Source of the DNA: Rikenellaceae bacterium
Lineage (GTDB): Bacteria; Bacteroidota; Bacteroidia; Bacteroidales; Rikenellaceae
Length of the DNA: 64,000 nt
Direction of reading: 5' to 3'
Assembly (NCBI GenBank): GCA_015060005.1
Contig: SUZI01000002.1
Coordinates: 218,177 to 282,176 of the forward strand
Shown: piece after piece, positions 23,126 through 39,232 of the stretch
Numbering within the stretch: the stretch's first letter is position 1
How the letters are laid out: each line of letters opens with the position of its first letter
The notes under the pieces: generated by a model
Databases searched by the model: none
What the model was told of the DNA's origin: nothing
The model's input: the letters and a program-made list of their open reading frames with translations, nothing else
Position numbers and translations under genes: made by a program

Positions 23126-23154
23126 AAGAGGCTCCCGCAGCCTCTTATTTTTTT
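23126..23154 (+). terminator. Rho-independent terminator of the porin gene
   Basis: AAGAGGCT (23126-23133) pairs with AGCCTCTT (23139-23146), followed by a T7 run (23148-23154). Confidence 0.75.
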
Positions 23155-23162
23155 GCCCCTCA

Positions 23163-23213
23163 CTCTTCCTCTTCCCCTCTCCTCTCTCCTCTCTCTCCTC
23201 TCTCTTCTTCCTC
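23163..23213. repeat. 51-nt pure polypyrimidine (C/T) tract
   Basis: Direct reading: only C and T between 23163 and 23213 (CTCTTCCTCTTCCCCTCTCCTCTCTCC...). Confidence 0.9.
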
Positions 23214-23214
23214 G

Positions 23215-23234
23215 CTCACTCACTCACTCACTCA
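23215..23234. repeat. (CTCA)5 tetranucleotide microsatellite
   Basis: Five perfect CTCA units directly after the polypyrimidine tract. Confidence 0.9.
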
Positions 23235-23252
23235 CGACGCCCTCGGTAACAC

Positions 23253-23272
23253 GGGTAACCAATTGGTTACCC
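23253..23272. repeat. Perfect 20-bp palindrome GGGTAACCAATTGGTTACCC
   Basis: The sequence is identical to its reverse complement. Confidence 0.9.
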
Positions 23273-23345
23273 GGAACATTTCGCCTTCTCCCTACGGTGT
23301 CGTGGGTAGCTTTTTACTCCCCACACCGCCAAAACTAAAAAGTAT

Positions 23346-23400
23346 TTTTCTATTGCGACTTTAATAACCCTTAGTATCCCTTAATAACCTTTAGCATCCC
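23346..23400 (+). repeat. Left copy of the intergenic repeat (21-nt core TTTTCTATTGCGACTTTAATA plus ~10-bp tandem units)
   Basis: The 21-nt core at 23346-23366 is identical to 35428-35448. It is followed by TAATAACCCT / TAGTATCCCT / TAATAACCTT / TAGCATCCC. Confidence 0.85.
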
Positions 23401-23752
23401 AAAAGTTTCGCGGGTAGTCTTTTTACTACCCACGACGACTAAAACTAAAATGTGAAAACTGAAAACCGAAATGTTAATTTTGAATTGTAAAACTCGTCAT
23501 TCCCCGCCTTGCCCTGCAAGGCGAAGGGAATCTACCTCATATAAATTCAAAGGTAAACTTAAACCTACAAACTGAAATCTCCTATCTCAGCCACAGACTT
23601 TACTCTCCCTTAATCTCCCTTAATATCCTTTAGCATCATAAAACTCTGCTTTCAATTCCACAACCCGAGTTGCGTTTTCAAATCTTAAAATTGCCATAAC
23701 TCCAATGTTTTAAGGTTAAAAAATGTAATTTGTTTTATAGGTATCAATAATA

Positions 23753-23795
23753 AAGGTCGGAGTGTCTACACTAATGCATAGACCACTCCGACCTT
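23753..23795 (-). terminator. Long hairpin terminating the island gene array
   Basis: AAGGTCGGAGTGTCTA pairs with TAGACCACTCCGACCTT (16 bp, one bulge). On the minus strand it lies 74 nt after the channel stop and is followed by the T-rich TTATTATTG. Confidence 0.65.
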
Positions 23796-23868
23796 CTTGG
23801 ATATTTCAAGAAAGTTAAATTACCCCCCCCCTATAGCGGATTTTAATGGGCTGTTATTTATCTGTCCG

Positions 23869-24720
23869 TCAAACATTTATATCCCCTTTTTGTCTATTTT
23901 TCTCCTTGTTTTTATGCTTGTCGTCGAGCACCTCCTGGTAGTTGTTGATGATTGCTCCGGTTACGACATTGAGCAGCAGGAACGCCGAGAGCACCACCCA
24001 CGTGATGTGGAACAGGTTGATTATCATCGGTGATGTGTTGATGAGCCCCAGCTCATACGCCTGCATACTATTGTATCTCACGTCAGCCCACGCATCACCC
24101 GTCAGCTCGCGGAAGAGTGTAAACATCGCCTCGCCCACGTTGGCAAATGGGTCGGGAGCACATTGTGGGACGTTAGATGCTGTCTGGCAATACTCCTCAT
24201 AGTTGGCTTTTAGCTGCTCCGATGCACTCTCCACGTCGGGCATACGGAACAGGCCGACACCGATGATTGCAAACAGATAGATGAATATCACGAAGAGTAT
24301 GATGTTGTAGAACATCGACACCAGCGAACGCAGCAACACCGATATTATGAGCTTTATCTCCTGCGACACACGCAGCAGTCTGAGCACGCGGAAGACTCTG
24401 ATAACACGCAGAGCCATCAGAGCTGATGGGTTTGTTATGATGGATGTCGGTATGTATCCTATCACCACTAACGTGAGGTCAAACAAGTTCCATCCGCTTG
24501 CGAAAAACTCCTTTGTGCTATCTGCGGCAATGAATCGTGCCAATATCTCGAAAGTGAATATTCCGAGAATGATTTTCTGCACCACAGTTATCGCCTCGCA
24601 GCTTACGGCGGTCTCCACGCCAATAAGTATCGAGTTCACTATGATTATTGCCGCTATAGTGAGCTCAAATATCTTGTTCTCCGTCAGCGACCGACAAAAC
24701 GATTTAAGTTGTTTATACAT
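23869..24720 (-). CDS. Voltage-gated-type ion channel subunit (6-TM, BacNav/NaChBac-like fold) with an atypical pore filter
   Basis: S4 with Arg every third residue (LRVIRVFRVLRLLRV). Pore loop MFTLFRELTGDAWADV followed by S6. 283 aa. Confidence 0.75.
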   Translation of the reverse strand: MYKQLKSFCRSLTENKIFELTIAAIIIVNSILIGVETAVSCEAITVVQKIILGIFTFEILARFIAADSTKEFFASGWNLFDLTLVVIGYIPTSIITNPSALMALRVIRVFRVLRLLRVSQEIKLIISVLLRSLVSMFYNIILFVIFIYLFAIIGVGLFRMPDVESASEQLKANYEEYCQTASNVPQCAPDPFANVGEAMFTLFRELTGDAWADVRYNSMQAYELGLINTSPMIINLFHITWVVLSAFLLLNVVTGAIINNYQEVLDDKHKNKEKNRQKGDINV

Positions 24721-24905
24721 AGTTGTTTTTTTCGTGTCTTACAGCTATCTTTTATCCGTTAATCTACATAATCCTGCATACCGAAATCCTTACCTTCGAG
24801 GCGAGAAACCATCTCCCGAGGAGCAATCAATTCTTCTCTCTGCTTGGTGTTGCTGCCCCAATATCTTGTATCCTCTTTATATGGTAAATATTGTCGGTAT
24901 CCGTC

Positions 24906-26666
24906 TTAGCAACTTTCAATGCTGTATTTCATTCTGTCACGCAGTACGTCGAGCAGTTTGGAGAACTCGGCAGGTCTGCCCTGCACGGTCGTAGGCCACT
25001 GCGATGTCAGCACAACCTCCTTGTCGGCGAGTTTAATTGTCGGCACATCGGGGCGACGACCAAAGAAGTCCACCTTTCCTTTCTCGTTCAGGATGTTGAG
25101 ATACTCGTTGTAGTCGAGGAATACGGTATCCATATTTTTCTTGAAAGCAAAAGCCTCCTTGAGCTGTTCGTGAGTGGTGCCGGGGTGCTCCGAGAGGTAG
25201 TACATCACCACATCGTTTACAAACTCCTTCTTTGTCGAGTATACCTTGCCGTTGAACTTGTACGACGATGTGTCGCGGTTGAACTTTGTAGGCTTCTTCA
25301 TCGGGCCATCAAAAGCCTTGAGGTTTGTTACAGCCGACATCTCGAGTGTTGCCTCAATTATCTCTCCCAGCTGGTCGTCATTGCCGACTATCTCTGCAAT
25401 CTTGTTGAGCAGTGTCGATACGCTGAAGGCTCTGTTGCTGAGGAATGTCTCCTTCTGGCACATACGATATACTATCTTCTCCCACTCTTCGTCGAACTCC
25501 TCCGTTTTGTCCAATACCTCTGACTCCTGTGCTGTCAGTGGACGGAGCTTGAGTTTCGATGCTATGGTCTCGTTCCAAGACTTGAAGTCGGGAGCCTCCG
25601 TCAACTGATTGTAGATATACGGATAAGCAATCTGTATGCAGACCAACGAGTAGTTGATGAGTTTGTCGAGTACTGTTATATTGTTCTGTGCTCCCGTCTG
25701 CTCCTCATAAATTATCGATATCAGGGCGAGGGTGTTTGTCAGTCGCTTCAGAGAGCGAGGGTTTGTACCTACCGAGAGACGTGTTATCTCCGACAGTTTC
25801 TCCGCCAGCGAAGGGTCTTTCAGCTCCTGGTCTGTGAAGAACTCTATCTTTCCCAGAGCATCCACCAGGAACGAGTCCACCGAGTACGAAGCCACCGGCA
25901 TAGAGAATGGCAGCTGAATTATCTTGTCGAAGAACGAACGGAACTCACGCTCGTTGGCATCTGTCAGCTCGCCGAACTTTGGTTTCAATCCTTTGATTAC
26001 TACGTCGTAGTCTATGGCGAGAATGAATACGCACTTCTCGAGGTCGAATATGTTCTTCAGCAGCTCCAGAATCTCCACCGCCACGGGTGGGTCTATACGG
26101 TCAAGATCGTCGATGTAGAACGTGAAGCCCTGCTTCGATGTATCCTTTGACAACGCCTCATCTATCAGCTTTGCAATCTCCTCCTTGAGCTGCGATATGT
26201 CCGATGCGGCACTCTCCTTGCCCTCGAAGAGATCATCTACCACTCCGCCATCGATGCCTACAGTGCCTGCGACCATCTTTGTACCTACCGATGCCATCTT
26301 CTTGAACAATCCGCCAATCTTACGTTTGCTCTCTGCCCACTTCTGGTCGCTTGGGTGGAGAGCTCCTATTTGGTTGATTATACCTTCAAGGATTGACATA
26401 ATGGCTTGCGATGGGGTCTTCATCAGCGAGTACTGCCAGGTGTTAATCCATACAGGGAAATATGGTGCATCGTTCACATCGCACAGGTTGTAACGCAACA
26501 GGTTCATCAGCGATGTCTTACCGCTTCCCCACTCACCCTGCAGGGCGATTGTTATCGGGGTGTCGGTCATACGAATATATTTAATCAAAGCATTCTGATA
26601 TGCCTGAATACCAAAAAGGTCCTCCTGCGTATGTTTACGCGGTACGTCTATTATGCTTGACTTCAT
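24906..26666 (-). CDS. KAP-family P-loop NTPase with an extra C-terminal domain
   Basis: Walker A LQGEWGSGKTSL. KAP-type Walker B FYIDDLDRIDP. NPRSLKRLTN motif. No TM insertion seen. The C-terminal ~115 aa resemble the N-terminus of the OmpA-like protein at 32224-33138. Confidence 0.75.
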   Translation of the reverse strand: MKSSIIDVPRKHTQEDLFGIQAYQNALIKYIRMTDTPITIALQGEWGSGKTSLMNLLRYNLCDVNDAPYFPVWINTWQYSLMKTPSQAIMSILEGIINQIGALHPSDQKWAESKRKIGGLFKKMASVGTKMVAGTVGIDGGVVDDLFEGKESAASDISQLKEEIAKLIDEALSKDTSKQGFTFYIDDLDRIDPPVAVEILELLKNIFDLEKCVFILAIDYDVVIKGLKPKFGELTDANEREFRSFFDKIIQLPFSMPVASYSVDSFLVDALGKIEFFTDQELKDPSLAEKLSEITRLSVGTNPRSLKRLTNTLALISIIYEEQTGAQNNITVLDKLINYSLVCIQIAYPYIYNQLTEAPDFKSWNETIASKLKLRPLTAQESEVLDKTEEFDEEWEKIVYRMCQKETFLSNRAFSVSTLLNKIAEIVGNDDQLGEIIEATLEMSAVTNLKAFDGPMKKPTKFNRDTSSYKFNGKVYSTKKEFVNDVVMYYLSEHPGTTHEQLKEAFAFKKNMDTVFLDYNEYLNILNEKGKVDFFGRRPDVPTIKLADKEVVLTSQWPTTVQGRPAEFSKLLDVLRDRMKYSIESC

Positions 26667-26790
26667 CTTTTCAAATTTTAACTTTCTTCTTCTGGCTAAG
26701 TTTGTCGTTCGTGAAAAACTTTTTATCAGCCGCTTGCGATGCGTTTTCTGTGTTATATCTCGGCTCCCTAATCTCGGTTGGGAGAGGTTG

Positions 26791-27564
26791 TTAGTTTGCT
26801 GCTGAGCAGCGGTTTGTTGCCTCTACGCGACGCGAATCATCATACGTTACGGTTGCTATGTTGTAGTCGTCTCCTCGTACTTCATCTTGTTCAAACGATG
26901 TCTTCACCTCCGTCTTGAAGAGCTTTGCCACCTTGGTTGCAAGGGCTATGTCATCGTTAGCCAATGCCATATTGAGTATCTGCTCGCATCGGTCATTGTA
27001 GAATCGCACCCACGTTTGATATACTACGTGGTCAATAGCCAACGAAGCACCCACGCCGGCATCATTGTCGTAGAACATTCCCGAGCCGTGTTTTCCCTCC
27101 GATAGGGGAGCTCCCTCTGTGGGTATGGCTACCAGCAACGATATGAGCTTGCTTGTCTTGTCTGCTGCCTCTCCGTAGTATATCGACGTAGCCTCCTGAC
27201 CGAAGATATATGCCATCGCCGTATGATATTGCTGCTGTTTTTGGCGAGCTTCTCTGTCGTTCCACGCTCCACCTCGCCACTTTCCGAACTCCTGGGTATA
27301 GTCGTTATAGAATGAGTTCAATACCTTTTTAGCCCCTACGAAGTCGCCTTCGGCACAGAGTGTGTAGTATTCCTGCTCTTGTTCCGTTGCTATTCCTGAG
27401 AAGCCACCACCGTCCATCGGATCGTTGTCGACATCTAATACTATCTGACTCAGCCCATACACCACGCCAACTATCACCAGAATAATTAGCCACTTACCTT
27501 TTATCAGCTTTGAAAATGTATGTGATCCTTTGCTTGAGGAATGGTTTTTTTCGTTAGTTTTCAT
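26791..27564 (-). CDS. Membrane-anchored protein of unknown function (one N-terminal TM)
   Basis: ATG start, basic N-terminus, then WLIILVIVGVVYGLSQIVL. 257 aa, no recognised motif. Confidence 0.5.
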   Translation of the reverse strand: MKTNEKNHSSSKGSHTFSKLIKGKWLIILVIVGVVYGLSQIVLDVDNDPMDGGGFSGIATEQEQEYYTLCAEGDFVGAKKVLNSFYNDYTQEFGKWRGGAWNDREARQKQQQYHTAMAYIFGQEATSIYYGEAADKTSKLISLLVAIPTEGAPLSEGKHGSGMFYDNDAGVGASLAIDHVVYQTWVRFYNDRCEQILNMALANDDIALATKVAKLFKTEVKTSFEQDEVRGDDYNIATVTYDDSRRVEATNRCSAAN

Positions 27565-27617
27565 ATGACCTCTTTTATTTGTTACATCCTTTCAATTTTC
27601 AATGATATGCCTTGCCA

Positions 27618-27639
27618 CATAGACTGCGAACAGTCTATG
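27618..27639 (-). other. Perfect 9-bp stem-loop with a UUCG tetraloop on the transcribed (minus) strand
   Basis: Plus strand reads CATAGACTG CGAA CAGTCTATG. Minus-strand RNA would be CAUAGACUG-UUCG-CAGUCUAUG. No U-run follows. Confidence 0.6.
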
Positions 27640-27662
27640 CCCCTTCGTTCTCATTTGGTGGT

Positions 27663-27905
27663 TTATCTGCACCTTCTCAGGGCATCTTTTGTTCTCTCAA
27701 TCTCTGCTTTCCAGCCCTCTATGCGGCGGTCGTGGTATGCAGCCTTGTCAATCTTGTTTTTGCGATACGAAGCCTTTGAGTATGACGACGATGCATTCTT
27801 TATCAGTCGTGCGTAGCTGTCGTTGTCGCGTTTCTTTGCCTCACGCTCATCCGATATGTAGCGTCGTAGGTCTATCAGCTTCTTCTTGTAATACTCTTTA
27901 CTCAT
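27663..27905 (-). CDS. Small basic coiled-coil-like protein, unknown function
   Basis: 80 aa, ATG start, K/R/E-rich (MSKEYYKKKLIDLRRYISDEREAKKRD...). Confidence 0.45.
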   Translation of the reverse strand: MSKEYYKKKLIDLRRYISDEREAKKRDNDSYARLIKNASSSYSKASYRKNKIDKAAYHDRRIEGWKAEIERTKDALRRCR

Positions 27906-27941
27906 AGTGCTTATTTTTTAAGGTTATTATTTCTTTTTTTG

Positions 27942-28253
27942 TTACATCCTTTCGATAATCAACTGCACCATATACACAGCGAATACCCACGCAGCAAAGC
28001 TCCACGCATATCCCAACACTGCTGTCACGCTGAAGCTGAATATCTGGTTCTTAGATTTTGCCCAGAACCAACGTGGGGGTATGTCGTTGCCGTATGCTAC
28101 CATACCGAATATCAGTCCTACCACTCCCACGGCTCCGCCATAGATTAACATCTCTGGCTCGTCGTAGACTATACATCCGATAAGTCCAAATGCCCCAATA
28201 GTGTTTACTATCGGAGCCAACAGGTTGATTATATATGCAATAACAAGAATCAT
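27942..28253 (-). CDS. Small integral membrane protein (about 3 TM)
   Basis: 103 aa, three hydrophobic stretches, ATG start. Confidence 0.5.
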   Translation of the reverse strand: MILVIAYIINLLAPIVNTIGAFGLIGCIVYDEPEMLIYGGAVGVVGLIFGMVAYGNDIPPRWFWAKSKNQIFSFSVTAVLGYAWSFAAWVFAVYMVQLIIERM

Positions 28254-28412
28254 AATCCAAAAATTAAACTACTTACCGATTCCAAATATTATTGTTCCAA
28301 TATCAAAAATTAACATAGATGAACTATTTAATTATAAACTCCTCTTAACGGGTCCATACCCGCATATATATCACTCTAAAGGAGCTGTGCCAACTCCTCC
28401 TTTGCGTTGTTT

Positions 28413-29000
28413 TTACTTCCAAACACCCTTCTTACAACCACTCTTCTCGCACTCGGCGTTGAACGACGCAAGAGTCTTATCATCGCTGGTTGATGATGTG
28501 TAGTAACGATGATTCTCGCCATTAGTGTAGCACACCTGGCAGTAGAGTCCGAATACTGTATCAAACTCCTTCTCAAGCGACTTAATCTTCTTGTTGCCCG
28601 ATATTGAGATGTCGCCACCAGAGTCGGCACGACGTACCGATGCGAGTGTCCTGTCATCTGGAATTCGACCACCCAATGAGTCACCTTTCTTTACCATCTC
28701 TCGGCTATAACTATAGCATACATAGAGGTTCAGATAGGGGAACTTTTTGTTGAACTCCTTACGCAAAGTACCCACCTTCTTGTTACCCGTAACCGATATC
28801 TCTGTTGCACTCTTTGAGGTGGTAGTAGTCTTCTTCGCTGCAGGTTTTGCTGCGGCAGTCTTCTTTGTAGCTGTGGCAGTAGTCTTCTTCGCTGCTGTAG
28901 TGGTCTTTTTCGCAGCTGCACTCTTTGTAGCACTCTTCTTAGCCGCTGTAGTGGTCTTCTTAGCTGTGGTTGTTTTCTTGGTTGTAGTAGTCTTTGCCAT
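28413..29000 (-). CDS. Lys/Thr/Ala-rich (histone-H1-like low-complexity) N-terminus fused to two copies of the island-specific ~50-aa module
   Basis: N-terminus MAKTTTTKKTTTAKKTTTAAKK... Modules GNKKVGTLRKEFNKKFPYLNLYVCY...DDRTLASV and GNKKIKSLEKEFDTVFGLYCQVCY...DDKTLASF. Confidence 0.6.
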   Translation of the reverse strand: MAKTTTTKKTTTAKKTTTAAKKSATKSAAAKKTTTAAKKTTATATKKTAAAKPAAKKTTTTSKSATEISVTGNKKVGTLRKEFNKKFPYLNLYVCYSYSREMVKKGDSLGGRIPDDRTLASVRRADSGGDISISGNKKIKSLEKEFDTVFGLYCQVCYTNGENHRYYTSSTSDDKTLASFNAECEKSGCKKGVWK

Positions 29001-29030
29001 AGTAGTAGTTTTTTAGGTTTCTTTGTGATA

Positions 29031-29052
29031 TGAGGTGCGGTCAGGCACCTCA
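29031..29052 (-). other. Intergenic hairpin with the conserved core GGTGCGGTCAGRCACCT
   Basis: TGAGGTGC pairs with GCACCTCA (8 bp, 6-nt loop). It lies between the stop at 29072 and the start at 29000. A 17-nt core recurs at 30550-30566 with one mismatch. Confidence 0.55.
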
Positions 29053-29071
29053 TACCTGTGTGTCGAGCCGA

Positions 29072-29386
29072 TTATTTACCAGCAGCAGCGAGAGTGATGT
29101 CGTTGTCAGCCAACTTCTTATCATCCTTGTCAGCTACCTGTACGCCGATACCGTACAACTCAGCAATCTTCTTCTCGAAGCTACCTACGCGGAGGTTGCT
29201 ACCTACAACGAGCTCGCCGCCCTTGTAACCCTCAGCACGCAATGAAGCGAGTGTAGCGTCCTCATCAGCCATAGCACCCTTGCAGGTTACGCTCTTGTAA
29301 ACACGCAAAGTTGCACCAAATGTCTTCTTAAAGTTGTCCTTCAAGCTCTTGACCTTCATACGGCCATCCAATTTGAAATCTGCCAT
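29072..29386 (-). CDS. Small protein made of two ~50-aa modules (A-B architecture), unknown function
   Basis: 104 aa. Module A MKVKSLKDNFKKTFGATLRVY...DEDATLASL. Module B LRVGSFEKKIAELYGIGVQVADKDDKKLADNDITLAAA. Confidence 0.6.
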   Translation of the reverse strand: MADFKLDGRMKVKSLKDNFKKTFGATLRVYKSVTCKGAMADEDATLASLRAEGYKGGELVVGSNLRVGSFEKKIAELYGIGVQVADKDDKKLADNDITLAAAGK

Positions 29387-29423
29387 AGTTTTTAAGTTTT
29401 TAGTTTGTTAATAAAATAGAGTG

Positions 29424-29630
29424 TTAGTTATTCTTCTTCTCGTTAAGAAAATCTACAAGTTTAGACCCAAACTGACGTGTGTTCCACGCAGGGTCATACT
29501 CGAAGCCCTCCTTCTCTGCAATCTCTCGCAGGGCTCCCTTCACATTGTCGTATATGCGATAAATCTCTATAGCACCGTTATCCAGTACCGATACTACATA
29601 CTCGCCCGAAATTACCGACTTCTTTGCCAT
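29424..29630 (-). CDS. Small soluble protein, unknown function
   Basis: 68 aa, ATG start, 37 nt upstream of the next gene in the array. Confidence 0.45.
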   Translation of the reverse strand: MAKKSVISGEYVVSVLDNGAIEIYRIYDNVKGALREIAEKEGFEYDPAWNTRQFGSKLVDFLNEKKNN

Positions 29631-29674
29631 TTTTTACTTTTTTATAGGTTAATAAAGTTCTCCAAACTCCCTGT

Positions 29675-29833
29675 TTAGAATATATCTTGTCCAAAAAAAG
29701 TTATTCCGAGATCAACACCGAAACACTTCTCGAAAATGAGCTGTGCAAGTGTCAGCACCGCTGCCAACGCCAGCAGAGCAAGAGCAACCGTCTTGCCCGT
29801 CACCACCGTCTTCTGTCTCTTCCTTCGTGCCAT
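29675..29833 (-). CDS. Unlisted 52-aa single-pass membrane micro-protein
   Basis: Hand-translated: MARRKRQKTVVTGKTVALALLALAAVLTLAQLIFEKCFGVDLGITFFGQDIF, ATG at 29831-29833, TAA at 29675-29677. It fills an otherwise empty 225-nt gap and starts 22 nt after the upstream stop. Confidence 0.45.
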   Translation of the reverse strand: MARRKRQKTVVTGKTVALALLALAAVLTLAQLIFEKCFGVDLGITFFGQDIF

Positions 29834-29855
29834 AATTACTGCTTTAAGTTTAGTG

Positions 29856-30524
29856 TCAAATAGTTACAATCTGATAGTAAAATTTCACATCATCAACAAT
29901 TTTGTCTCTCCACGCAATGGTGTACGAATTCTCCAGCTCAAATGACTTGTATGACTTCATTTGTGCACACGCACTCTGCTCGTTTTGCCAATGTTTAATT
30001 GGCGAGTGCGTACCCTCGGTTAAATTCAGCAGATAGTTATTCGACTCTTTCCTGCTTCCTTTGACATAGTATTCGTCGTTTGTTACGAACACCGCTAACC
30101 CTCCTTTGACTCGCTCAAAGCGGTTGCGTACCAGCTCCACGCGACGCACATCCTTCCAGAAGTCGTACATTCCCAGGTCCTGAGCTCCTTGATTTTTCAT
30201 CACTACTACTTTGTCTTTCAGCTCTTCATCAAAGCGTGTGATTGTACGCTCCACCTTTCGGGTTTTGTATTTCAGCTCCACAGGGCAATACTCGCCATCT
30301 TTTCTGACCACTATGTCGAGTCTGAGCTCGCTGTCCCATATATAGTTCTCAAGCTCACTCTTAGGCACATAATACTCCACGTCGACATCGTCGTAGTGGT
30401 TTGCCGACTTACGCAGCCACGTAGCTAAATGCATCTGCAGGTCTCGCTCATTGAATAACAACTCCTCGTTGCTCTCTATGAAAGCGAAAACATCTGCCCG
30501 AACAATCTCTACCAAACTTGCCAT
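29856..30524 (-). CDS. PD-(D/E)xK nuclease-fold candidate
   Basis: From the ATG at 30524 (MASLVEIV...). Motif SELRLDIVVRKDGEYCPVELKYK matches D ... E-x-K spacing of PD-(D/E)xK enzymes. The track start at 30614 adds 30 unlikely residues. Confidence 0.45.
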   Translation of the reverse strand: MASLVEIVRADVFAFIESNEELLFNERDLQMHLATWLRKSANHYDDVDVEYYVPKSELENYIWDSELRLDIVVRKDGEYCPVELKYKTRKVERTITRFDEELKDKVVVMKNQGAQDLGMYDFWKDVRRVELVRNRFERVKGGLAVFVTNDEYYVKGSRKESNNYLLNLTEGTHSPIKHWQNEQSACAQMKSYKSFELENSYTIAWRDKIVDDVKFYYQIVTI

Positions 30525-30635
30525 AAAAATTTCCTTTTTTGTACCTCTGGGTGCGGTCAGACACCTGCTCCCCGAATATCTGTTCTCCTCTTCGTTGTTG
30601 CTAAATACTGCCACAAGGGGGATTTAGGGGAAATC

Positions 30636-31142
30636 TTATGCACCCCTGAAATAATCACTTACCCTTGATGCTGCAAGAGTGATGAGAACCGCAATGGCGA
30701 CAGTTATAATACCCGTAAGAATAGTCCACCACTTCCACAAAATTATTTGTGCAATGATGGCGATGACTGCCAATGCCCAAATAACTATATTGACGATATT
30801 CCTGCGGGCGTTCTCCTTGAAATCTTCGCAGAAGTTTGCTGTGAAAAATGCAATAACAGCAGTTACAGGTCCTGTTGCCAAGGTCCACCATCCAAAGAAG
30901 ATAGCCTGCACAATAATGAGCACAAGAGCCAAAGACCAGACGCTCAAACGAATGATTCGTTTCGTCGAGTCTACAGGTTTTGCGTCATTGTCACAATCCT
31001 TAGGAGTCCTCTTCCTTCTCTTAATGTACTCTATTTCATCATCTTCCTCCTCGAGAGAGTCTTCCTGATCCATTTCGGAGTCATCATCAATCAAGGTTTC
31101 CGCTTTGGTCATTACCTTTTCTAATAAATTATCCATTTTCAT
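30636..31142 (-). CDS. Four-TM membrane protein with an acidic N-terminal tail and an internal 2-TM duplication
   Basis: N-terminus is D/E-rich (DDDSEMDQEDSLEEEDDEIEY). Repeats VWSLALVLIIVQAIFFGWWTLATGPVTAVIAFF and VIWALAVIAIIAQIILWKWWTILTGIITVAIAVL. Confidence 0.55.
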   Translation of the reverse strand: MKMDNLLEKVMTKAETLIDDDSEMDQEDSLEEEDDEIEYIKRRKRTPKDCDNDAKPVDSTKRIIRLSVWSLALVLIIVQAIFFGWWTLATGPVTAVIAFFTANFCEDFKENARRNIVNIVIWALAVIAIIAQIILWKWWTILTGIITVAIAVLITLAASRVSDYFRGA

Positions 31143-31180
31143 ATTCTGTAAATCTTAATAGAGTAAATATTCCGTGTTGT

Positions 31181-31543
31181 TTAATACTCGCCGCGTGCAG
31201 CCTGACCTATGGTAATGCCATTTGGAACGAGCTTGGTGCCTTTGGCATCCTTGATCTGAACTGTTACGCCGAAGTTCTGGTCAAAGAGCTTCTCTGCGTC
31301 GCCCACCTTCATACTCGCTTTGATTTTCAATCCATCGGCAGTCGACTTCACATCTTTGGTTGTCTTTTTGTTGAGTGCCGCCAATGTCAGGTCGCCATCC
31401 GCAATCTGTGCTCCCTTGTAGAATACAAGCGAGAGGTTGAACGCCTTCTTAAAGTCTGCCGACAAAGTCTTCAATTTCTTGTTTGGAGCCACTGTGAACT
31501 CGCCACTCTTGAAGTTGTCTAAGATATTATTCAAAATTCCCAT
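31181..31543 (-). CDS. Small protein made of two ~50-aa modules (A-B architecture), paralog of 29072-29386
   Basis: From the ATG at 31543 (MGILNNILDNF...). Module A KKLKTLSADFKKAFNLSLVFY...DGDLTLAAL. Module B MKVGDAEKLFDQNFGVTVQIKDAKGTKLVPNGITIGQA. Confidence 0.6.
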   Translation of the reverse strand: MGILNNILDNFKSGEFTVAPNKKLKTLSADFKKAFNLSLVFYKGAQIADGDLTLAALNKKTTKDVKSTADGLKIKASMKVGDAEKLFDQNFGVTVQIKDAKGTKLVPNGITIGQAARGEY

Positions 31544-31594
31544 ATTATTGTGTAAAATGTTTATTATGCTGTGTTTCACCGACTTATCACGCCA

Positions 31595-31620
31595 CACAGG
31601 GAGCTGTCATACTCCCTGTG
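31595..31620 (-). other. Perfect 9-bp intergenic hairpin
   Basis: CACAGGGAG (31595-31603) pairs with CTCCCTGTG (31612-31620). It lies between the TerB-like stop (31636) and the next start (31543). Confidence 0.55.
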
Positions 31621-31635
31621 TCGGTGTGCGTTTTT

Positions 31636-32046
31636 TTAGAAGGCGAGTTCCAGTTCTTCCTCCTCCTTTGCCAAATCTATGATGAGCAATACTGCGCGAG
31701 CATCGTCAATACCCAGAGCCGAAGCCACTGCGAGCAGGTTATCCACCTCCTCTGTGCCGAGTACGCCATCGACAATTGCAATCTGCAGAGCCGCCTCGAA
31801 AACTATCTCAGCCTCCTCCTCGTCAATTTCCGCAGAGTTGTTGAGTATATACTCGTTCACCTGCTCCTCGTTCATATTCTCCACTTCACCTAAGGCAGCC
31901 TCCACTGCTGCTGTCAGCTCAGCGTTATCCAGCTCCAAAGCCTCAGCTATCTCCTCGACAGCCACCTTCTCAGCCTCATCGTATACTCCGTCAGCCCAAA
32001 CGACTGTTGCCAGCACTGCGGCAAGATTCTTAATATCGGTATTCAT
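31636..32046 (-). CDS. TerB-like (tellurite-resistance TerB / DjlA N-terminal fold) protein
   Basis: 136 aa, very acidic. Two helical repeats with the ADG/VDG..E signature (VVWADGVYDEAEKVAVEEIAEAL and IAIVDGVLGTEEVDNLLAVASALG). Confidence 0.6.
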   Translation of the reverse strand: MNTDIKNLAAVLATVVWADGVYDEAEKVAVEEIAEALELDNAELTAAVEAALGEVENMNEEQVNEYILNNSAEIDEEEAEIVFEAALQIAIVDGVLGTEEVDNLLAVASALGIDDARAVLLIIDLAKEEEELELAF

Positions 32047-32047
32047 A

Positions 32048-32200
32048 CTATTTGAACAATCTTAAAATGCGGTTTTTCAAACTATTTTTCTCCTTGCGGG
32101 CTTTTGCCATACGGGCACATATTGCCTTACCCTCCTTGGTACGCTTGTCGACAGTACCACTCTTGGTCTTTTTGACCGAAGTTGTTTTCTTAACAGCCAT
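32048..32200 (-). CDS. Unlisted 50-aa lysine-rich micro-protein, translationally coupled to the TerB-like gene
   Basis: Hand-translated: MAVKKTTSVKKTKSGTVDKRTKEGKAICARMAKARKEKNSLKNRILRLFK. ATG at 32198-32200, TAG at 32048-32050, and one base before the TerB-like ATG (32044-32046). Confidence 0.5.
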   Translation of the reverse strand: MAVKKTTSVKKTKSGTVDKRTKEGKAICARMAKARKEKNSLKNRILRLFK

Positions 32201-32223
32201 AATATCAATGTTTTATAATAATT

Positions 32224-33138
32224 TTACTCCAAAATAATGAACTCTGTACGACGGTTAGCCTCTGGGTTGCTCTCGTCGATAGGCTCCGATGAGCCCTTGC
32301 CTTCAGACTCCAGACGCTCAGCAGCGATGCCGCGTGATACGAGGAAGTCAACCGCAGCCTTGGCACGCTCCTCCGAGAGACGCTGGTTGAACGCAGCATC
32401 GCCCTCCGATGATGTGTGTCCTACGAGCTTAAGTCTGAGCTCTGGGTGCTTCTCCATCAGCTGCTGCAGGTCGTGCAATACGAACTTGGCATCGTCTGAG
32501 AGGTCAGCCTTACCCTTCACGAATGTAGCGTTGTTGAAATCCTTCTCAATCTCCTCTACGCGGTCCACGTAGACGATTTTCTCCACCTCTACAATCTTCT
32601 CGACCTCTACAACCTTCTCTACCTCTACTACCTCCTTCTCGGCAGGCTTCAGAGCGAAGAAAGCAGCTACGCCACCTACGAGCAGGAGCAGCAGGAGCCA
32701 CAACCACCACAACGACTTCTTCTTACCCGGCATAGGTGGCACGTAGCCATTCAGATACTCCAGACGAAAACCGCCCTTCTTGCCACCCTTGTCTGCAGCC
32801 TCAAACGATGCAATCTCTATATCGTATAGTTTGGCGTGCGACACCATACGCTCAAAACTTGGTTTTGTCCACATCTTTACTACCGACACCCTCTTATTGT
32901 CGCCCATTGTGAGCAACTCATCTTCTGCCTTGAAGTATCCGTCCCAATCTGCAGTTGTACCCTTATCTTCGGCGTAAACGAAGTTCTCTTTCACTCCTTT
33001 GTCGGGGTTTAACTCATTTGGAAATGCCTTACGCAAATCCTCTAAAGTTGCTTGCGGGTACATCACCATATATGCGTGTGCAATACCCAATGCGGTACGG
33101 TTTTGTGCCTTACCATAGACTCTTACTTTACTTGCCAT
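32224..33138 (-). CDS. Membrane-anchored OmpA-family peptidoglycan-binding protein with a novel N-terminal cytoplasmic domain
   Basis: C-terminal OmpA_C motifs (LVGHTSSEGDAAFNQRLSEERAKAAVDFL, NRRTEFI). One TM (LWWLWLLLLLLVGGVAAFFAL). (V/I)VEVEK repeats. The N-terminal ~125 aa resemble the KAP NTPase C-terminus. ATG at 33138 preferred; the track start is 33171. Confidence 0.7.
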   Translation of the reverse strand: MASKVRVYGKAQNRTALGIAHAYMVMYPQATLEDLRKAFPNELNPDKGVKENFVYAEDKGTTADWDGYFKAEDELLTMGDNKRVSVVKMWTKPSFERMVSHAKLYDIEIASFEAADKGGKKGGFRLEYLNGYVPPMPGKKKSLWWLWLLLLLLVGGVAAFFALKPAEKEVVEVEKVVEVEKIVEVEKIVYVDRVEEIEKDFNNATFVKGKADLSDDAKFVLHDLQQLMEKHPELRLKLVGHTSSEGDAAFNQRLSEERAKAAVDFLVSRGIAAERLESEGKGSSEPIDESNPEANRRTEFIILE

Positions 33139-33559
33139 AACATTATTATTTTTTTTGGTTTGATCTTTCAAGTGGGGCTTACATTTTACTACGCTTGGTG
33201 CATAAAAACAGAAAGCGTAGACTAATTACTTAATCTCCGCTGATAGGTCCTAGGAAAACCGTGGTAAGAAGAAAAAAGCAACAGCCTACGCCAAGAATGC
33301 GTACACCGGGTGGTATACACAACCAGCGATAGGGTTTGTCCTCTCTTACCGTAAATGAATTTCCTAGGTTCATCAGCGAGAATGACAAACACTTTCGTGT
33401 AAATCAAAATATTTCCACAAATATATGAAAAAATTTGACAAAACCTACCAACACCTCTAAAAATCTGACATTTCAAGGAGTTTTCGAGGGGCGGGCTGTT
33501 GCTGTTACAAAGATATGAAATGTTGACAAAGGAGAATTTGTCTTTTGTTGTCTTATTGA

Positions 33560-34729
33560 CTACTCTTCGGGATATGGAGTGTATTGTAAATTGTTGTTGC
33601 GTAGCGAGTCGTAGTAAACTATCTGTTCCAAATCCGACTCGATGTAATACGAGGACATTGTATCCATTGCTGCCACCGCTTCTAAGTAGCGTTGCTGATA
33701 TATCTCCCCATATTTTGTTGCTACAATTGCTTGTTCCGCCTCATCAAGCGTCTCTGCTGTTATCGCTTTGCTGAGCGAGTCGCATCGCTCCCACATAATG
33801 AGTACTTCCTGAGTTGCAAACTCTATATAATGAGATGCTTTGATGTGTTCAATCGAGGTGTTGCAAATCTCGTTTATTCCACTCTGCATCCTTTGGATTA
33901 GCTCCTTGCGATGTCTCTCTTTTCGGTGTGTCCTCACCACCCACAATGTCTGTACAGCCACTGCCGAGATAATGATTATCGCTACCAGCAGATTGAGGGC
34001 AACCCTCCAGCCTCGGTTGTGGCGGTGCCACGCACGCTGTAACTCCTCGATGTTGGCATATCGTTTTGCAGGGATGGCATTGGTGCATCGTTTGGTAATA
34101 GACGACACTCCCAACATCTCCATCATTATAATACCTATGCTATATATATCACTGCGAGCATCTATCCTGTCGGCGTGTGCCTGCAACTCGGGTGAGGCGT
34201 AGCGGGGTGTACATCCCAAGCTACGCAGGGCATACTCTGCATCGCTGTCTGCCAATCCGAAGTCGATAAGTTTCAGTGTGTTATCCGCACGTGTTATGAG
34301 TATGTTGTCGGGCTTCAGGTCGTTGTGTATTATGCCTCGTTTGTGGAGATATCCGACAGCCGCTATCAGCTCTGCGAATATGCGTTGGCGTTCCTTTTTG
34401 GATGGATTTTCTGCTATGAACTCTGTGAGTGTTCGCCCCTCGATATACTCCATCACTATGCCCATTCCTATGGGCAGCTGTTCTATGGTGTAGATGTGAA
34501 CGATGTTGTGGTGGTCGCACTCTAACGACAATTCATACTCGCGACGTAGCATACGTTGCTGAGCTTCCGAGTTGTCTTTTGTTGTCTTTATCAAGAAACG
34601 TTTACCATTTTTATGGGCTATCCAAAGACGTGATAGTGCAGTGATTCTCAACTCGTTAAAGTCGTGAAACTCCTCTGTGATAATTCCATTTGAGCCTCCT
34701 TGTTCTCTTATTTCACTCTCTTCTACCAT
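33560..34729 (-). CDS. Hanks-type Ser/Thr protein kinase with one TM and a C-terminal helical domain
   Basis: Catalytic loop IIHNDLKPDNILI, DFGLAD, ASPE, and the beta-3 Lys in FLIKT. TM LLVAIIIISAVAVQTLWVV. The ATG at 34729 is preferred; the track start at 34750 is a TTG. Confidence 0.75.
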   Translation of the reverse strand: MVEESEIREQGGSNGIITEEFHDFNELRITALSRLWIAHKNGKRFLIKTTKDNSEAQQRMLRREYELSLECDHHNIVHIYTIEQLPIGMGIVMEYIEGRTLTEFIAENPSKKERQRIFAELIAAVGYLHKRGIIHNDLKPDNILITRADNTLKLIDFGLADSDAEYALRSLGCTPRYASPELQAHADRIDARSDIYSIGIIMMEMLGVSSITKRCTNAIPAKRYANIEELQRAWHRHNRGWRVALNLLVAIIIISAVAVQTLWVVRTHRKERHRKELIQRMQSGINEICNTSIEHIKASHYIEFATQEVLIMWERCDSLSKAITAETLDEAEQAIVATKYGEIYQQRYLEAVAAMDTMSSYYIESDLEQIVYYDSLRNNNLQYTPYPEE

Positions 34730-34747
34730 ATTGGAATTTTTGTTTGT

Positions 34748-34768
34748 CAAAGATAATAATTATTTTTG
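34748..34768. promoter_or_regulatory. Back-to-back TAnnTTTG (-7) boxes of a divergent promoter pair
   Basis: Minus strand TATCTTTG (plus CAAAGATA, 34748-34755) lies 18 nt before the kinase ATG. Plus strand TATTTTTG (34761-34768) lies 5 nt before the ATG at 34774. Confidence 0.4.
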
Positions 34769-34773
34769 CAAAT

Positions 34774-35364
34774 ATGAGCATCCGTCGTGATATACCACAA
34801 ATTCGTGTTTTGCGTGAACGCGTTGAGAGACGTTTTGGTAAGCGTTTTTCGGTGCACGCCGACTTTTTGGCATTGGTGTCGGTTATTGAGATGGAGTTGC
34901 GTCAACACATCTCCGAGAGCACTCTGGAGCGTGTGTGGGGCTACTCTACGCGAGGCTATGACACCGTTTCGCTCCGTACTCTCGATGTCCTGTCGACCTA
35001 TGCTGAGGGGTGTAGTTGGCACGACTTCTGTCATCGTTTGCAGATGGCGGCTGAGAGCGAGTCGGAGCTCTTCAGCGTTGAGCATATCTCTACTGCCGAT
35101 TTACAGGTAGGTGATCGTCTGCAGATAGGCTGGCTTCCCGACCGACGTTGTGTTATTCGCTATGTGGGTGATAATCGTTTTATGGCAGAGAGTTGCGAGA
35201 ACTCCAAGATGCAGCCAGGCGACAGCTTTTCGTGTCTGCAGTTCACGCTTGGCAAGGAGCTTGTTATGTGTGATTTCATTCCGTTTAACACCTCCTCTCC
35301 CACCTCACAGTCCTATATCGTCGGCAGCCGCAATGGCTTGACCTCCCTCTGCATCGTGCACTAA
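34774..35364 (+). CDS. Hypothetical protein, possibly HTH-containing, divergent from the kinase
   Basis: From the ATG at 34774 (MSIRRDIPQIR...). ISESTLERVWGY resembles an HTH recognition segment. The C-terminal half is beta-rich. No family recognised. Confidence 0.4.
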   Translation: MSIRRDIPQIRVLRERVERRFGKRFSVHADFLALVSVIEMELRQHISESTLERVWGYSTRGYDTVSLRTLDVLSTYAEGCSWHDFCHRLQMAAESESELFSVEHISTADLQVGDRLQIGWLPDRRCVIRYVGDNRFMAESCENSKMQPGDSFSCLQFTLGKELVMCDFIPFNTSSPTSQSYIVGSRNGLTSLCIVH

Positions 35365-35427
35365 TCTTCTGTGCAAATTTTCGGCAGGAAGACTTTAGCC
35401 TCGCCAAAACTGAAGGGTAAAAGGTAC

Positions 35428-35512
35428 TTTTCTATTGCGACTTTAATATCCTTTAATATCCCTTAGTATCCCTTAACAACCCTCAATTTAACAACCCTCA
35501 ATTTAACCTCCC
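35428..35512 (+). repeat. Right copy of the intergenic repeat (identical 21-nt core plus ~10-bp tandem units)
   Basis: TTTTCTATTGCGACTTTAATA at 35428-35448 matches 23346-23366 exactly. It is followed by TCCTTTAATA / TCCCTTAGTA / TCCCTTAACAACCC / TCAATTTAACAACCC / TCAATTTAACCTCCC. Confidence 0.85.
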
Positions 35513-35974
35513 ATTCCTCTTCCCTAATACTCATTTTCCCAAAAATGTGGATGTTTTTTGAGCTCTTCTCTTCAATTGCTATTTTCACTAACCTATATTT
35601 TCTGCCGCACCTAAAAGTTGTAATCGACAGAAAAACAATCTTTTAACATTTGCTCTTTTCTATAACTATCCACTTTTTTTGAAAATTTCGCCAGGCAAAA
35701 TCCACTCTGCCACGCCCTTTTCTTTGCCGTTATCTTGTCTGTTCCACTTATTACACGTAGGTTGTTTTGCTCAAAAGCGTGATTTTCAGCGTGTTGCAAT
35801 TTTCTAAAATCTATATTTTTACTTTATCACTTCGATAAATGGCACTTTCGAACGATTATTATCACTAACTTAGTGATACGATTAAGCGGCGAGCCTAAGC
35901 CCAGCGAGCAGAAGATGTTGTTTGGTCGGAAAGCCTAAACTCACTATACAAAACTAACTAATAACTAAAAGCCT

Positions 35975-38900
35975 ATGAAAAACTTGACAAAAATCGCATT
36001 GATCCTTGCGATCATCTGCGTGAGCACAGCTTCGGCATTTGCTCAACAAGTGAAGGGTACCGTTAAGGATAAGGCAGGCGAGCCCGTTGTCGGTGCTACT
36101 GTTATTATCGATGGTACTTCTATCGGCACAACCACAGCTTTGGATGGTTCATTTGCCATCAATGCCAAGGAGGGTAGTGTGCTGGTAGTATCTTACATCG
36201 GTTACGCCACACAGAATGTAGCCGTTGAGGGTAAGACATTCTTTGATATTCTCCTCGAGGAGGATATCCAGGGATTGGATGAGGTTGTTGTTGTCGGTTA
36301 TGGTACTCAGAAGAAGAGTGTCGTTACGGCAGCTATCTCATCTATCACATCCGACGACCTGAAGGCTCAGTCGAACACACGTATCGAGAGCGTTCTTCAG
36401 GGTATGACCTCGGGTGTAACAGTAACCGCTCCTTCGGGTGCTCCTGATGCTGCTGCACAGGTACGTATCCGTGGTGTCGGCTCTATCAACCAGTCAGGTC
36501 CTCTCTACATCGTTGATGGTTTGGCTATTTCGGGTGGTATCGACTACCTCAACCCTAACGATATCGAGCGTATCGAGGTGTTGAAGGATGCTGCGTCGGG
36601 TGCTGTTTATGGTGCACGTGCTGCCAACGGTGTTGTTTTGGTAACAACGAAGAAGGGCGAGAAGGGCCGTGCTACTGTTAACTACGACTTCTCTTATGGT
36701 TGGCAGAATCCTTGGCGTAAGCCCGATGTGCTGAACGCTACCGAGTATGCAATCATTATGAACGAGGGTTACATCAACGCTGGTCAGGCTCCTATCTACG
36801 ACGACCCATACTCTTTGGGTAAGGGTACCGATTGGGTTAGCGAGGTTCTCAACGACAATGCTCCTATTATGAAGCACGACCTCTCTATCTCGGGCGGTAA
36901 CGACAAGACTACCTACGCTCTCTCGGCAGGTTATCTCTCACGCGAGGGTACCGTAGGCGGCAACTATGACCGTTCTAACTATGAGCGTGTAACTGTTCGT
37001 GCCAACATCGGTACAACCATCTTCGACAAGTCGAAGGATCGCGATTGGCTCAACAAGATGTCAGTTCAGGTGTCGGCTTCTTACGCACGTATATTAGCAA
37101 CAGGTATCGAGGCAAACTCTGAGTTCGGCTCACCTCTGGGCTCTGCTATGAGTATGTCGCCACTGTTGAACGTATATGCTACTCCAGAGGAGGAAGAGGC
37201 TTACAAGACTCTCTATCCCGAGGGTTATCCTCATATCGTACGCGACGCTGATGGTCGTGCTTTCACTGTTGTCGATGGTGGTATCTACAACGAGCAGACC
37301 AACCCATTGGCATCGCTCTCATTGCCTGGTACAAAGTATGAGACCGATAAGTTCATCACCAACTTTGTTGGCGAGTTGCAGCTCTTCGATGGCTTGAAGC
37401 TCCGCTCTTCTGTTGGTATCGACCTGGCGTTCTGGGGCAACCACGGCTACAACAAGCAGTATTTCCTCTCTTCAAAGCGTTACAGCTACAATACTGTTGC
37501 TGCGGAGACTACCTACGACAAGGATGGCAACGCAACCGTTACCGAGAAGACCAACTATGCTGAGTCTGCTTCTCAGGAGATGAATCGTGGCTTCCAGTAT
37601 CAGGTTGAGAACGTGCTCTCTTATGAGAAGTCATTCGACAAGCACTCTATCTCTGTTATCTTGGGTCAGTCGGCTATCTCTTCTACCTCGGCTAACGTAG
37701 GTGCGTCGGCTCGCGGTTTGATGTATCCTTACGACCCATATAAGATTAGCGTAAATAACACTCTCGGCCAGCAGGCTGATGGCGACCGCAACGGTTGGGG
37801 CTCTTGGAACTCTATCCCTTACCGCTTGGCATCATATTTCGGTCGTGTATCGTACAACTACGACGAGCGTTATATGGCTGAGGTTACCTTCCGTCGTGAT
37901 GGTTCTTCTCGCTTCGGTTCTAACAACAAGTGGGGTAACTTCCCATCAGTATCTTTGGGTTGGAACATCAAGAACGAGGCATTTATGCAGAATGTAGATT
38001 GGCTCTCAGCATTGAAGCTCCGTGGCTCTTGGGGTGTCAACGGTAACGATGCTATCGGCAACTTCGTATATGCTGTATATATGAACTCTGGTAACAACTA
38101 TGTATTCGGTTCTGGTGGCAACGGCTCTGAGTCTATCATCCTGGGCTCTAAGCCATCGGGCTTGGCTAACCCTGACGCACGTTGGGAGGAGTCTCGCCAG
38201 ACCAATATCGGTATCGACGCTACATTCTTCAACAACCGCTTGACTCTTACAGCAGATTGGTACAACAAGAAGACCGCTGGTATGCTTCTTTCGATGCCTG
38301 TTCCTGGCTATGCTGGCGACTCTGCTCCTACGGGTAACTTGGGCGATATGGTCAACAAGGGTATTGAGTTTGAGATTGGCTGGCGTGATATCGTAGGCGA
38401 TTTCAAGTACCACGTATCGGTTAATGCTACCTATAATAAGAATGAGTTGACATATTTGGGTGATGACTCTACTCACCTCTACGGCTCAAGCCATAAGATT
38501 GGTCAGCTCACACGCGGCTCTATCGGTCTTCCATTCCCATACTTCTATGGTTACGAGACCGACGGTATCTTCCAGAATATGGACGAGGTTAATGCTCACG
38601 TCAACGCCGATGGTCAGCTCTTGCAGCCTAAGGCAGCTCCTGGTGATGTTCGTTTCAAGGATCTCAATGGCAATGGCACCCTCGACGATGGCGACCGTAC
38701 AATGTTGGGCAAGGGTATGCCTGATTGGACTTTCGGTATGAACTTGGGCTTCGAGTGGAAGGGCTTGGACTTCAACGCTCTGTTGCAGGGTCAGCTGGGT
38801 TGCGAGGTATTCAACGTATCACGTCGTACCGACCTCTACTACGTCAACCTCAACCGCTCTATCTTGAATCGTTGGACCGGCGAGGGCTCTACCAACGAGT

Positions 38901-39211: not shown

Positions 39212-39232
39212 CCTTAAAACCGAATGATTATT

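Follow-up and report, generated by a model that had tools for sequence, protein, structure and literature searches.

A tandem module of about 50 residues in three conserved genes of a gut Bacteroidales cluster, tentatively read as a shortened ubiquitin-like docking domain

A 64,000-nucleotide stretch of a Rikenellaceae genome (assembly GCA_015060005.1, contig SUZI01000002.1, positions 218,177 to 282,176 of the forward strand), referred to here as the window, carries on its reverse strand three small paralogous genes, P1, P2 and P3, whose products share a domain made of two consecutive modules of about 50 amino acids. The domain defines a family that numbers over 1000 sequence clusters, spans Bacteroidales of animal guts as well as marine bacteria, and is unannotated in the libraries searched. 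P1, P2 and P3 are ancient paralogues within this family, and we tentatively favour the view that its pair of probably shortened ubiquitin-like units serves as a non-conjugated docking module.

All coordinates given here are positions of the window. P2 (29072 to 29386, 104 amino acids) is the two-module domain without extras, with module A at residues 1-55 (nucleotides 29222-29386) and module B at residues 56-104 (29075-29221). P3 (31181 to 31543, 120 amino acids) begins with a short, amphipathic-looking N-terminal helix (MGILNNILDNFK, residues 3-10), followed by module A at about residues 13-67 (31343-31507) and module B at about residues 68-120 (31184-31342). Its start is the ATG at 31543, where almost all homologues begin, so that a 138-residue open reading frame (ORF) with a GTG start was discarded as an over-extension. 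In P1 (28413 to 29000, 195 amino acids), a tail rich in Lys, Thr and Ala (residues 1-64, 28809-29000; 18 K, 23 T and 17 A) precedes module A, which bears a 9-residue insertion (residues 65-129, 28614-28808), and module B, which bears a 13-residue insertion and a Cys-bearing C-terminal extension (residues 130-195, 28416-28613). Two long alternative-frame ORFs overlap the tail, 28730-29053 on the reverse strand and 28747-29016 on the forward strand; these are by-products of the low-complexity repeat and not genes.

The three proteins align across their entire shared length, with BLASTP scores of 52 bits between P2 and P3, 36 bits between P1 and P2 and 34 bits between P1 and P3. An earlier reading of the DNA, made from the sequence alone, had proposed three paralogues of a duplicated α/β-looking module, to be refuted if its six segments failed to align significantly. 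A module hidden Markov model (HMM) built from the wider family and run over the window in six frames detects all six, and solely in these three proteins: P2 scores 68.7 and 59.6 bits, P3 52.4 and 51.7 bits, and P1 22.6 bits (plus 6.6, the match being split by the insertion) and 27.6 bits, while the next best ORF has an E-value above 4. The KAP NTPase, the kinase and the nuclease-like protein encoded nearby are all without the module by this HMM. Moreover, the A halves align to the B halves by hhalign with a probability of 98.3 % (E 2.4e-14), and the HMM of one type recognises the other (median 13 bits for the A model on B halves and 28.6 bits for the B model on A halves), with no shuffled control above 10 bits. 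The A and B types are thus one homologous module, and the domain of about 100 residues arose by internal duplication. The A-B order proposed for P2 and P3 stands, whereas the A-A' order proposed for P1 does not: under the B model its second module reaches 37.1 bits, under the A model 23.0 bits, so that all three proteins are A-B.

Conservation between genomes shows the three to be real genes under purifying selection. Compared with orthologues in other genomes, the ratio of nonsynonymous to synonymous differences per site (pN/pS) is 0.23 for P2 and 0.14 for P3, and identity stays at about 80-86 % where synonymous sites are near saturation. Close homologues of P2 form 753 clusters at 90 % identity, nearly all of 104 residues; those of P3 form 1196, mostly of 120 residues, and those of P1 form 1649, all three sets being labelled 'hypothetical'. 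Each of the three thus represents an old orthologous group of its own, with 70-90 % identity among many genomes of Bacteroidales, which contradicts the local expansion suggested earlier. The extra cysteines noted in P1 prove to be a conserved feature: in 121 P1-type proteins Cys157, Cys184 and Cys189 are invariant or nearly so, and Cys95 is found in 74 %. As a separate observation, pS of P2 is 0.56 against its orthologues in related loci (L005-L083), clearly lower than for P3, p80 and TerB of the same loci (0.79-0.85); strong expression with its codon bias could explain this, as could gene conversion between the several copies of P2.

As had been surmised, the module belongs to no named family in the libraries searched: P1, P2 and P3 gave no significant family match in Pfam-A (2025 copy), NCBIfam 20.0, PADLOC 2.0 or PHROGs 4, and a sequence search of the PDB with two-module and single-module profiles returned nothing significant (ISG15 at E of about 5). 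One P1 orthologue, P0241, bears the precomputed label PF27926.1, an entry absent from the Pfam copy searched. P2 had no match in phage and plasmid collections and a single one among the 2.9 million contigs of IMG/VR, a near-absence that makes the family not obviously mobile or viral.

Structure prediction gives the domain a probable identity. The AlphaFold2 (AF2) models of P2 (pLDDT, the per-residue confidence measure, 83.8; pTM, the predicted template modelling score, 0.68) and P3 (pLDDT 79.3, pTM 0.70) both show a strand, a 12-residue helix, a strand, a bridge and a short helix, twice, and DSSP assigns each module two strands of at least 3 residues together with isolated bridges. Foldseek searches of the PDB return ubiquitin-like proteins as all of the top 50 matches for P3 and as nearly every match for P2, including ISG15, linear di-ubiquitin, FAT10, ATG8/GABARAP, SUMO, BfUbb and the tandem ubiquitin-like (UBL) domains of OASL. 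When a single module is superposed on ubiquitin, SUMO or ATG8, 46-53 columns align at 1.9-3.9 Å. Furthermore, hhalign of the module profile against a small alignment of ubiquitin, NEDD8, SUMO and ISG15 (sequences entered by hand) gave a P-value of 5e-4 at a probability of 30 %, in a register where the module strand corresponds to β2, the helix to α1, 'LRVY' to β3, then β4, and 'ADxDxTLA' to the DGRTLSDY 3-10 turn. A ubiquitin HMM scores a median of 6.5 bits on 152 real units, 40 % of them above 8 bits; the medians of shuffled and reversed units are -1 and -0.65, and none of these exceeds 8.3 bits. A unit of only about 50 residues makes a full five-stranded β-grasp impossible within one unit. 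On these models and alignments each module is probably a shortened ubiquitin-like (β-grasp) unit, an assignment in which we have fairly good confidence. The best structural match of the whole domain is to uncharacterised 96-residue proteins of Erwinia jumbo phages (for example W6B1I5 of phage Ea35-70), with TM-scores of 0.48-0.53, a probability of 0.95-0.97, about 100 columns, an E-value of 0.018 and 8-18 % identity.

Since the best structural matches are tandem ubiquitin-like proteins, P1, P2 and P3 might be true ubiquitin-like modifiers or their precursors, either freed by proteolytic cleavage or conjugated by enzymes whose genes lie elsewhere. The architectures of the family also parallel those of ubiquitin genes (free, in polyubiquitin-like arrays and as N-terminal fusions resembling ubiquitin-ribosomal proteins), with a conserved A-G-K/R at the domain boundary. 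We nevertheless hold this to be very improbable. A C-terminal Gly-Gly is absent from all three proteins, which end in GVWK (P1), AAGK (P2) and RGEY (P3), and most domains of the family are N-terminal, with a long C-terminal extension. No E1, E2 or JAB/peptidase gene was found among the neighbours in the window, in the annotated 10 kb on either side of relatives or in the census of 79 related loci described below, and known bacterial Ubls have the opposite polarity (PMC11601603).

The extent of the family was assessed by a profile search of 1.84 billion representative proteins, which returned 1046 representative clusters at E ≤ 1e-3 and, with the cut-off tightened to E ≤ 1e-10, 548; detailed architecture comes from the best 149 of the 1046. 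Among these 149 representatives the recurring element is the whole pair of about 100 residues rather than the single module, and in most of them the pair starts at residue 1-5. It takes three forms: alone (about 100 residues), in arrays of 2-4 or more pairs (arrays of 2-4 units in P0361, P0362, P0365 and P0368), or as the N-terminal head of proteins of 200-1100 residues. The 98 C-terminal tails of at least 80 residues fall into 57 mutually unrelated groups and contain 21.5 % Asp plus Glu. The majority of tails have no Pfam family; the recognisable partners are LRR_5, DUF4116, Ribosomal_L12 (the L7/L12 C-terminal domain), FGE-sulfatase, DUF6273, OmpA, TerB and Endonuclea_NS_2. Marine and sediment metagenomes are the source of a second subfamily (MALNINGRMKVKTL...GSDDSYLCDND), which keeps 60-90 % identity across its first 100 residues or so, while its tails are wholly different. 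In marine contigs the domain is N-terminal in 72 of 93 module ORFs, and 64 tails form 30 groups with 22.7 % Asp plus Glu. Two further leads were set aside: a recurrent C-terminal domain of about 230 residues (GWIDLFGWGTSG...LWRTPT), considered as a Fibrobacter-type paralogous or DUF1566-like domain, was confirmed by neither Pfam nor NCBIfam, and three ubiquitin-family Pfam matches in the scan of the 149 members could not be assigned to a member or region, ten candidates showing sub-threshold traces only.

A constant N-terminus with hypervariable C-termini is a signature of polymorphic systems, and it is present here (98 tails in 57 groups, and 64 marine tails in 30). The domain could therefore be a trafficking or packaging handle that loads polymorphic cargo into a secretion or injection machine, with the stand-alone copies acting as adaptors or plugs. 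One tail of the 149 is a toxin-type domain, Endonuclea_NS_2, and the LRR_5, DUF6273 and FGE-sulfatase partners are commonly extracellular. The other hallmarks of polymorphic toxins, immunity genes and a secretion route, were not found: secretion-system genes are lacking in the cluster census and in the annotated flanks, and no systematic immunity-like gene follows the tails, which are acidic and mostly do not belong to toxin families. Fusion to an OmpA-like protein, described next, would moreover make the domain a permanent cytoplasmic-side part of a membrane protein. We consider this explanation quite unlikely.

The chief basis for proposing a docking module within a membrane-proximal assembly is that the domain is fused to the products of its own gene neighbours. 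At least nine genomes (L009, L027, L030-032, L035, L048, L055 and L060; 431-437 amino acids) have a P2-type domain joined to the OmpA-like protein as its N-terminal part, and the same P2::OmpA fusion is seen in P0384. The OmpA domain should bind peptidoglycan, which would place the fused domain on the cytoplasmic side of the single transmembrane helix, and a Lys-rich segment before that helix points the same way by the positive-inside rule; the domain would thus be cytoplasmic. TerB is fused to the two-module domain in P0381, and fusions to the L7/L12 C-terminal domain also exist. The small protein p68 of the same cluster directly follows the module pair in several larger proteins, in the order LRR_5, pair, p68 in L012 and pair, p68, unannotated domain of about 230 residues in L033 and L066; a p68 fusion is seen again in ORF cluster 19, and p68 also occurs at the C-terminus of LRR_5 proteins. 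The cluster thus has in p68 another small domain that is promiscuous (in the window and in L012, L033, L054 and L066). Earlier the three genes had been thought to encode diversified adaptor, effector or immunity-like components; with at least 57 tail families and the fusions between neighbours, a diversified adaptor is favoured, and an effector or immunity function finds no support.

A different function is suggested by the P1 tail. P1, P2 and P3 could be small basic proteins associated with the nucleoid or RNA, the module binding nucleic acid and the tail of P1 strengthening that binding, with the neighbours as a syntenic backdrop. The composition of the tail (18 K, 23 T and 17 A in 64 residues) and its weak HC2 match fit this, as do net charges, counted from the sequences, of about +4 for P2 and +6 for P3. 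That the proteins are very highly conserved and small, with each sequence found on many contigs, would suit abundant architectural proteins, and there are fusions to the L7/L12 C-terminal domain as well as nucleases recurring nearby. The histone-H1-like character noted earlier holds for composition but not for family membership: the tail scores 13.6 bits with NCBIfam histone_lik_HC2 against a cut-off of 135, and P1 orthologues reach a sub-threshold 27-30 bits with Pfam HC2 against a cut-off of 40. The likeness of the tail to HC2 or H1 is compositional. Furthermore, the folded domain resembles no known nucleic-acid-binding fold, and its fusion to the membrane-anchored OmpA-like protein, to LRR repeats and to p68 suggests a place in protein assemblies. 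The strong acidity of most fusion tails makes it less likely that the proteins bearing them bind DNA. On balance a nucleic-acid-binding role is unlikely.

The neighbourhood of the three genes was compared through a one-genome-per-species scan that found 300 relatives, of which the best 79 loci, with P2 orthologues 71-88 % identical, were analysed. Many of these loci are incomplete, 38 having full flanks of 8 kb on each side, and ORF calling in the related loci is crude. They come from metagenome-assembled genomes labelled Alistipes, Rikenellaceae, Bacteroidaceae, Alloprevotella, Muribaculaceae, Porphyromonadaceae and other Bacteroidales, most of them of animal-gut origin. The usual order is kinase, OmpA-like, p50, TerB, P3, a nuclease-like protein of 221 residues, p68 and P2, then sometimes P1 and a 103-residue membrane protein, p80, sometimes KAP, and finally an ion channel. 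All 197 module ORFs of the 79 loci, 2-6 per locus, are co-directional. P3 accompanies P2 in 73 of the 79 loci, p80 in 57 (29 of the 38 with full flanks), the OmpA-like gene in 52 (31 of 38), p68 in 41, often in several copies (2-4 per locus), TerB in 37 (23 of 38), the kinase in 37 (median identity 41 %), the nuclease-like gene in 36, P1 in about 30 and KAP in 16 (8 of 38). The OmpA-p50-TerB block is present in 37 loci, and DUF4230, PDDEXK_4, WG repeats and LRR_5 are further recurrent parts. The cluster is therefore syntenic and co-directional, a conserved frame with mosaic, shuffled content. What was earlier supposed to be an accessory island is this cluster and no strain-specific insertion, although its G+C in the window (0.44-0.47) is lower than that of its flanks (0.50-0.55). 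To the earlier question whether homologues always neighbour TerB, KAP or OmpA-like genes, the counts above within 8 kb of P2 and the near-absence of these genes from marine loci answer that the association is common yet not invariable.

Several observations weigh against the docking reading and the proposed fold. The AF2 alignments have little depth, with 57-64 sequences drawn from three subfamilies, and the models of P2 and P3 share one overlapping alignment. The Foldseek matches to the PDB are non-significant, with a best E-value of 8e-3 and TM-scores of about 0.3 and at most 0.35; the hhalign probability to the ubiquitin alignment is low; and the modules fall short of a complete five-stranded domain of about 70-76 residues. 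Many fusion representatives stem from one or two contigs, and some, P0382, P0383 and P0386 among them, have the look of chimeras produced by assembly or frameshift. The partners known from the gut are all but absent around the marine relatives: in 80 marine loci OmpA, p80 and KAP match 1-2 loci, and TerB, p68, the kinase and the nuclease-like gene match none, which makes a single universal hub unlikely. The binding partner is a predicted one, and for defence components P2 and P3 would be unusually well conserved. The marine neighbours themselves vary, with PD-(D/E)xK, GIY-YIG and RNase_T nucleases and transposases each in a few loci.

With these points taken into account, the docking module is still the explanation we tentatively prefer, and it would work as follows. 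Each unit would consist of a strand, a helix, a strand, a short strand and a 3-10 turn carrying the shared D-x-x-T-L-[AS] motif, and the pair would resemble a compact ISG15 or di-ubiquitin without being a conjugated modifier. It would act in the cytoplasm as a constant handle for protein-protein docking, alone in P2, with an N-terminal amphipathic helix in P3, and with a polycationic H1-like tail and a Cys triad in P1. Elsewhere the handle would head hundreds of proteins and bring their variable, acidic or repeat-rich C-terminal parts (LRR_5, DUF4116, FGE-sulfatase, L7/L12 C-terminal domain, TerB, OmpA) to a common partner. In gut Bacteroidales the set of partners would be the co-directional, membrane-proximal cluster from the kinase through p80, sometimes with KAP. 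A bolder version, which we consider improbable as a whole, is an enzyme-free ubiquitin-fold docking system where variable sensor or decoy tails, in their hundreds, plug, via a tandem mini-ubiquitin head, into shared hubs; the gut hub would then be a membrane-anchored assembly of the OmpA-like, TerB, kinase, KAP and nuclease-like proteins, and the whole a new bacterial immune or envelope-surveillance system.

The other members of the cluster in the window all lie on the reverse strand. The Ser/Thr protein kinase (33560 to 34750; Pfam Pkinase 3.8e-38), with a C-terminal membrane segment, marks the upstream boundary. In the OmpA-like protein (32224 to 33171; Pfam OmpA 4e-17) an N-terminal region is followed by a single transmembrane helix and, at the C-terminus, by an OmpA peptidoglycan-binding domain; a resemblance of its N-terminus to the C-terminus of the KAP protein was considered and dropped on BLASTP (E 0.12, in a different region). 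Between the OmpA-like gene and TerB, and just upstream of the latter, lies p50 (32048-32200; 50 amino acids, Lys-rich), which at about 84 % identity across genomes is among the most conserved cluster genes, level with P3, and is duplicated in some genomes, repeating the motif DGTVDKRTKEGK...ARMAKAR. The TerB-domain gene (31636 to 32046; Pfam TerB 3.2e-10) is directly upstream of P3. The nuclease-like protein (29856 to 30524, 221 amino acids), encoded between P3 and P2, contains the PD-(D/E)xK-like motif LDIVV...PVELKYK, read by eye, and is a putative nuclease; it has no Pfam or PDB sequence match. Its likely true start is the ATG at 30524, where the L001 orthologue (63 % identity) begins, and the 252-residue GTG ORF at 29856-30614 is probably this 221-residue protein, as in orthologues. 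The remaining small proteins are p68 (29424 to 29630, 68 amino acids), with no family or PDB sequence match, and p80 (27663 to 27905, 80 amino acids), a coiled-coil-looking, frequent downstream partner with no family match. The KAP-family P-loop NTPase (24906 to 26666; Pfam KAP_NTPase 1.7e-36) stands at the downstream edge as an occasional component. In PADLOC the KAP NTPase matches PifA (5e-33), QatA (1e-23) and PDC-S20, and the kinase matches the mad6 and PD-T4-6 kinase models; these matches are a generic likeness to defence components and not system calls. Adjoining the cluster on the forward strand (35975-40735), a SusC-like TonB-dependent receptor (1078 amino acids) followed by a 503-residue ORF seems to open a polysaccharide utilisation locus, as would be expected on a chromosome of the Bacteroidales.

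Some features of the non-coding DNA and of one marine protein were also recorded. The Bacteroidetes -7 promoter motif TAnnTTTG is absent from the 150 nucleotides upstream of P1 and of P2, and occurs once for P3, at -136. A 16-nucleotide hairpin core, GGTGYCTGACCGCACC, is found twice on the reverse strand (29034-29049 and 30550-30565; chance expectation 0.07), just upstream of P1 and of the nuclease-like gene, and in 1 of 83 related loci. Further intergenic stem-loops lie upstream of P3 and of a 257-residue gene, and an Rfam scan of 23000-36000 gave no match. In L088 (3169-5370), a 733-residue protein of LRV and DUF4116 repeats has an exact module B end, VSGSDDSYLCDND, spliced into its DUF4116 repeats, which may be a chimera of the assembly or the result of recombination inside the conserved sequence that encodes the module.

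Our work thus delimits a family through which hundreds of multi-domain proteins now labelled 'hypothetical' can begin to be annotated, and a conserved mosaic cluster of gut Bacteroidales whose parts recur both as separate genes and as fused domains. Candidate interaction partners of P2 are the OmpA-like protein, p68 and P3. If the fold assignment holds, the ubiquitin superfamily extends to a duplicated minimal unit of about 50 residues without conjugation enzymes; if the docking system exists as proposed, this would be the smallest known ubiquitin-like unit, in gene architectures that run parallel to those of ubiquitin.

In the Bil and Bub operons, Ubls carry extra domains N-terminal to a free C-terminal β-grasp and always occur with E1, E2 and a peptidase (PMC11601603; PMC10557695). 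The domain described here sits at the N-terminus, with its extensions C-terminal to it, and such enzymes were not found nearby; this reversed polarity and the missing enzymes set the family apart from the Bil and Bub Ubls. Prokaryotic NTPase conflict systems contain small shared adaptor domains, repeat or FGE-type sensors and, in Bacteroidetes, L12/ClpS inserts (PMC7159879). Their effector-associated and Death-like adaptor domains are likewise small and common to unrelated proteins of one neighbourhood with NTPases, kinases and nucleases; they are all-α and present on both NTPase and effector, whereas the module described here is α/β and missing from the KAP NTPase. The likeness to the 96-residue proteins of Erwinia jumbo phages is structural only, sequence relatives of P2 not having been found in the phage and plasmid collections. 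ISG15, linear di-ubiquitin and FAT10, the leading Foldseek matches of both models, consist of two consecutive ubiquitin-like units (about 100-150 amino acids), as the pair described here probably does, with the helix and the D-x-x-T-L-[AS] register in common; they differ in their units of about 76 residues against about 50 here, and the pair described here matches them at a TM-score of about 0.3, is bacterial and has neither a C-terminal Gly-Gly nor conjugation enzymes. In eukaryotes, non-conjugated UBL, UBX and PB1-type domains serve as ubiquitin-fold docking surfaces within larger proteins; they are single full-length β-grasps whose partners are known. The two-module domain of P1, P2 and P3 may share their mode of action, by analogy rather than by sequence relationship.

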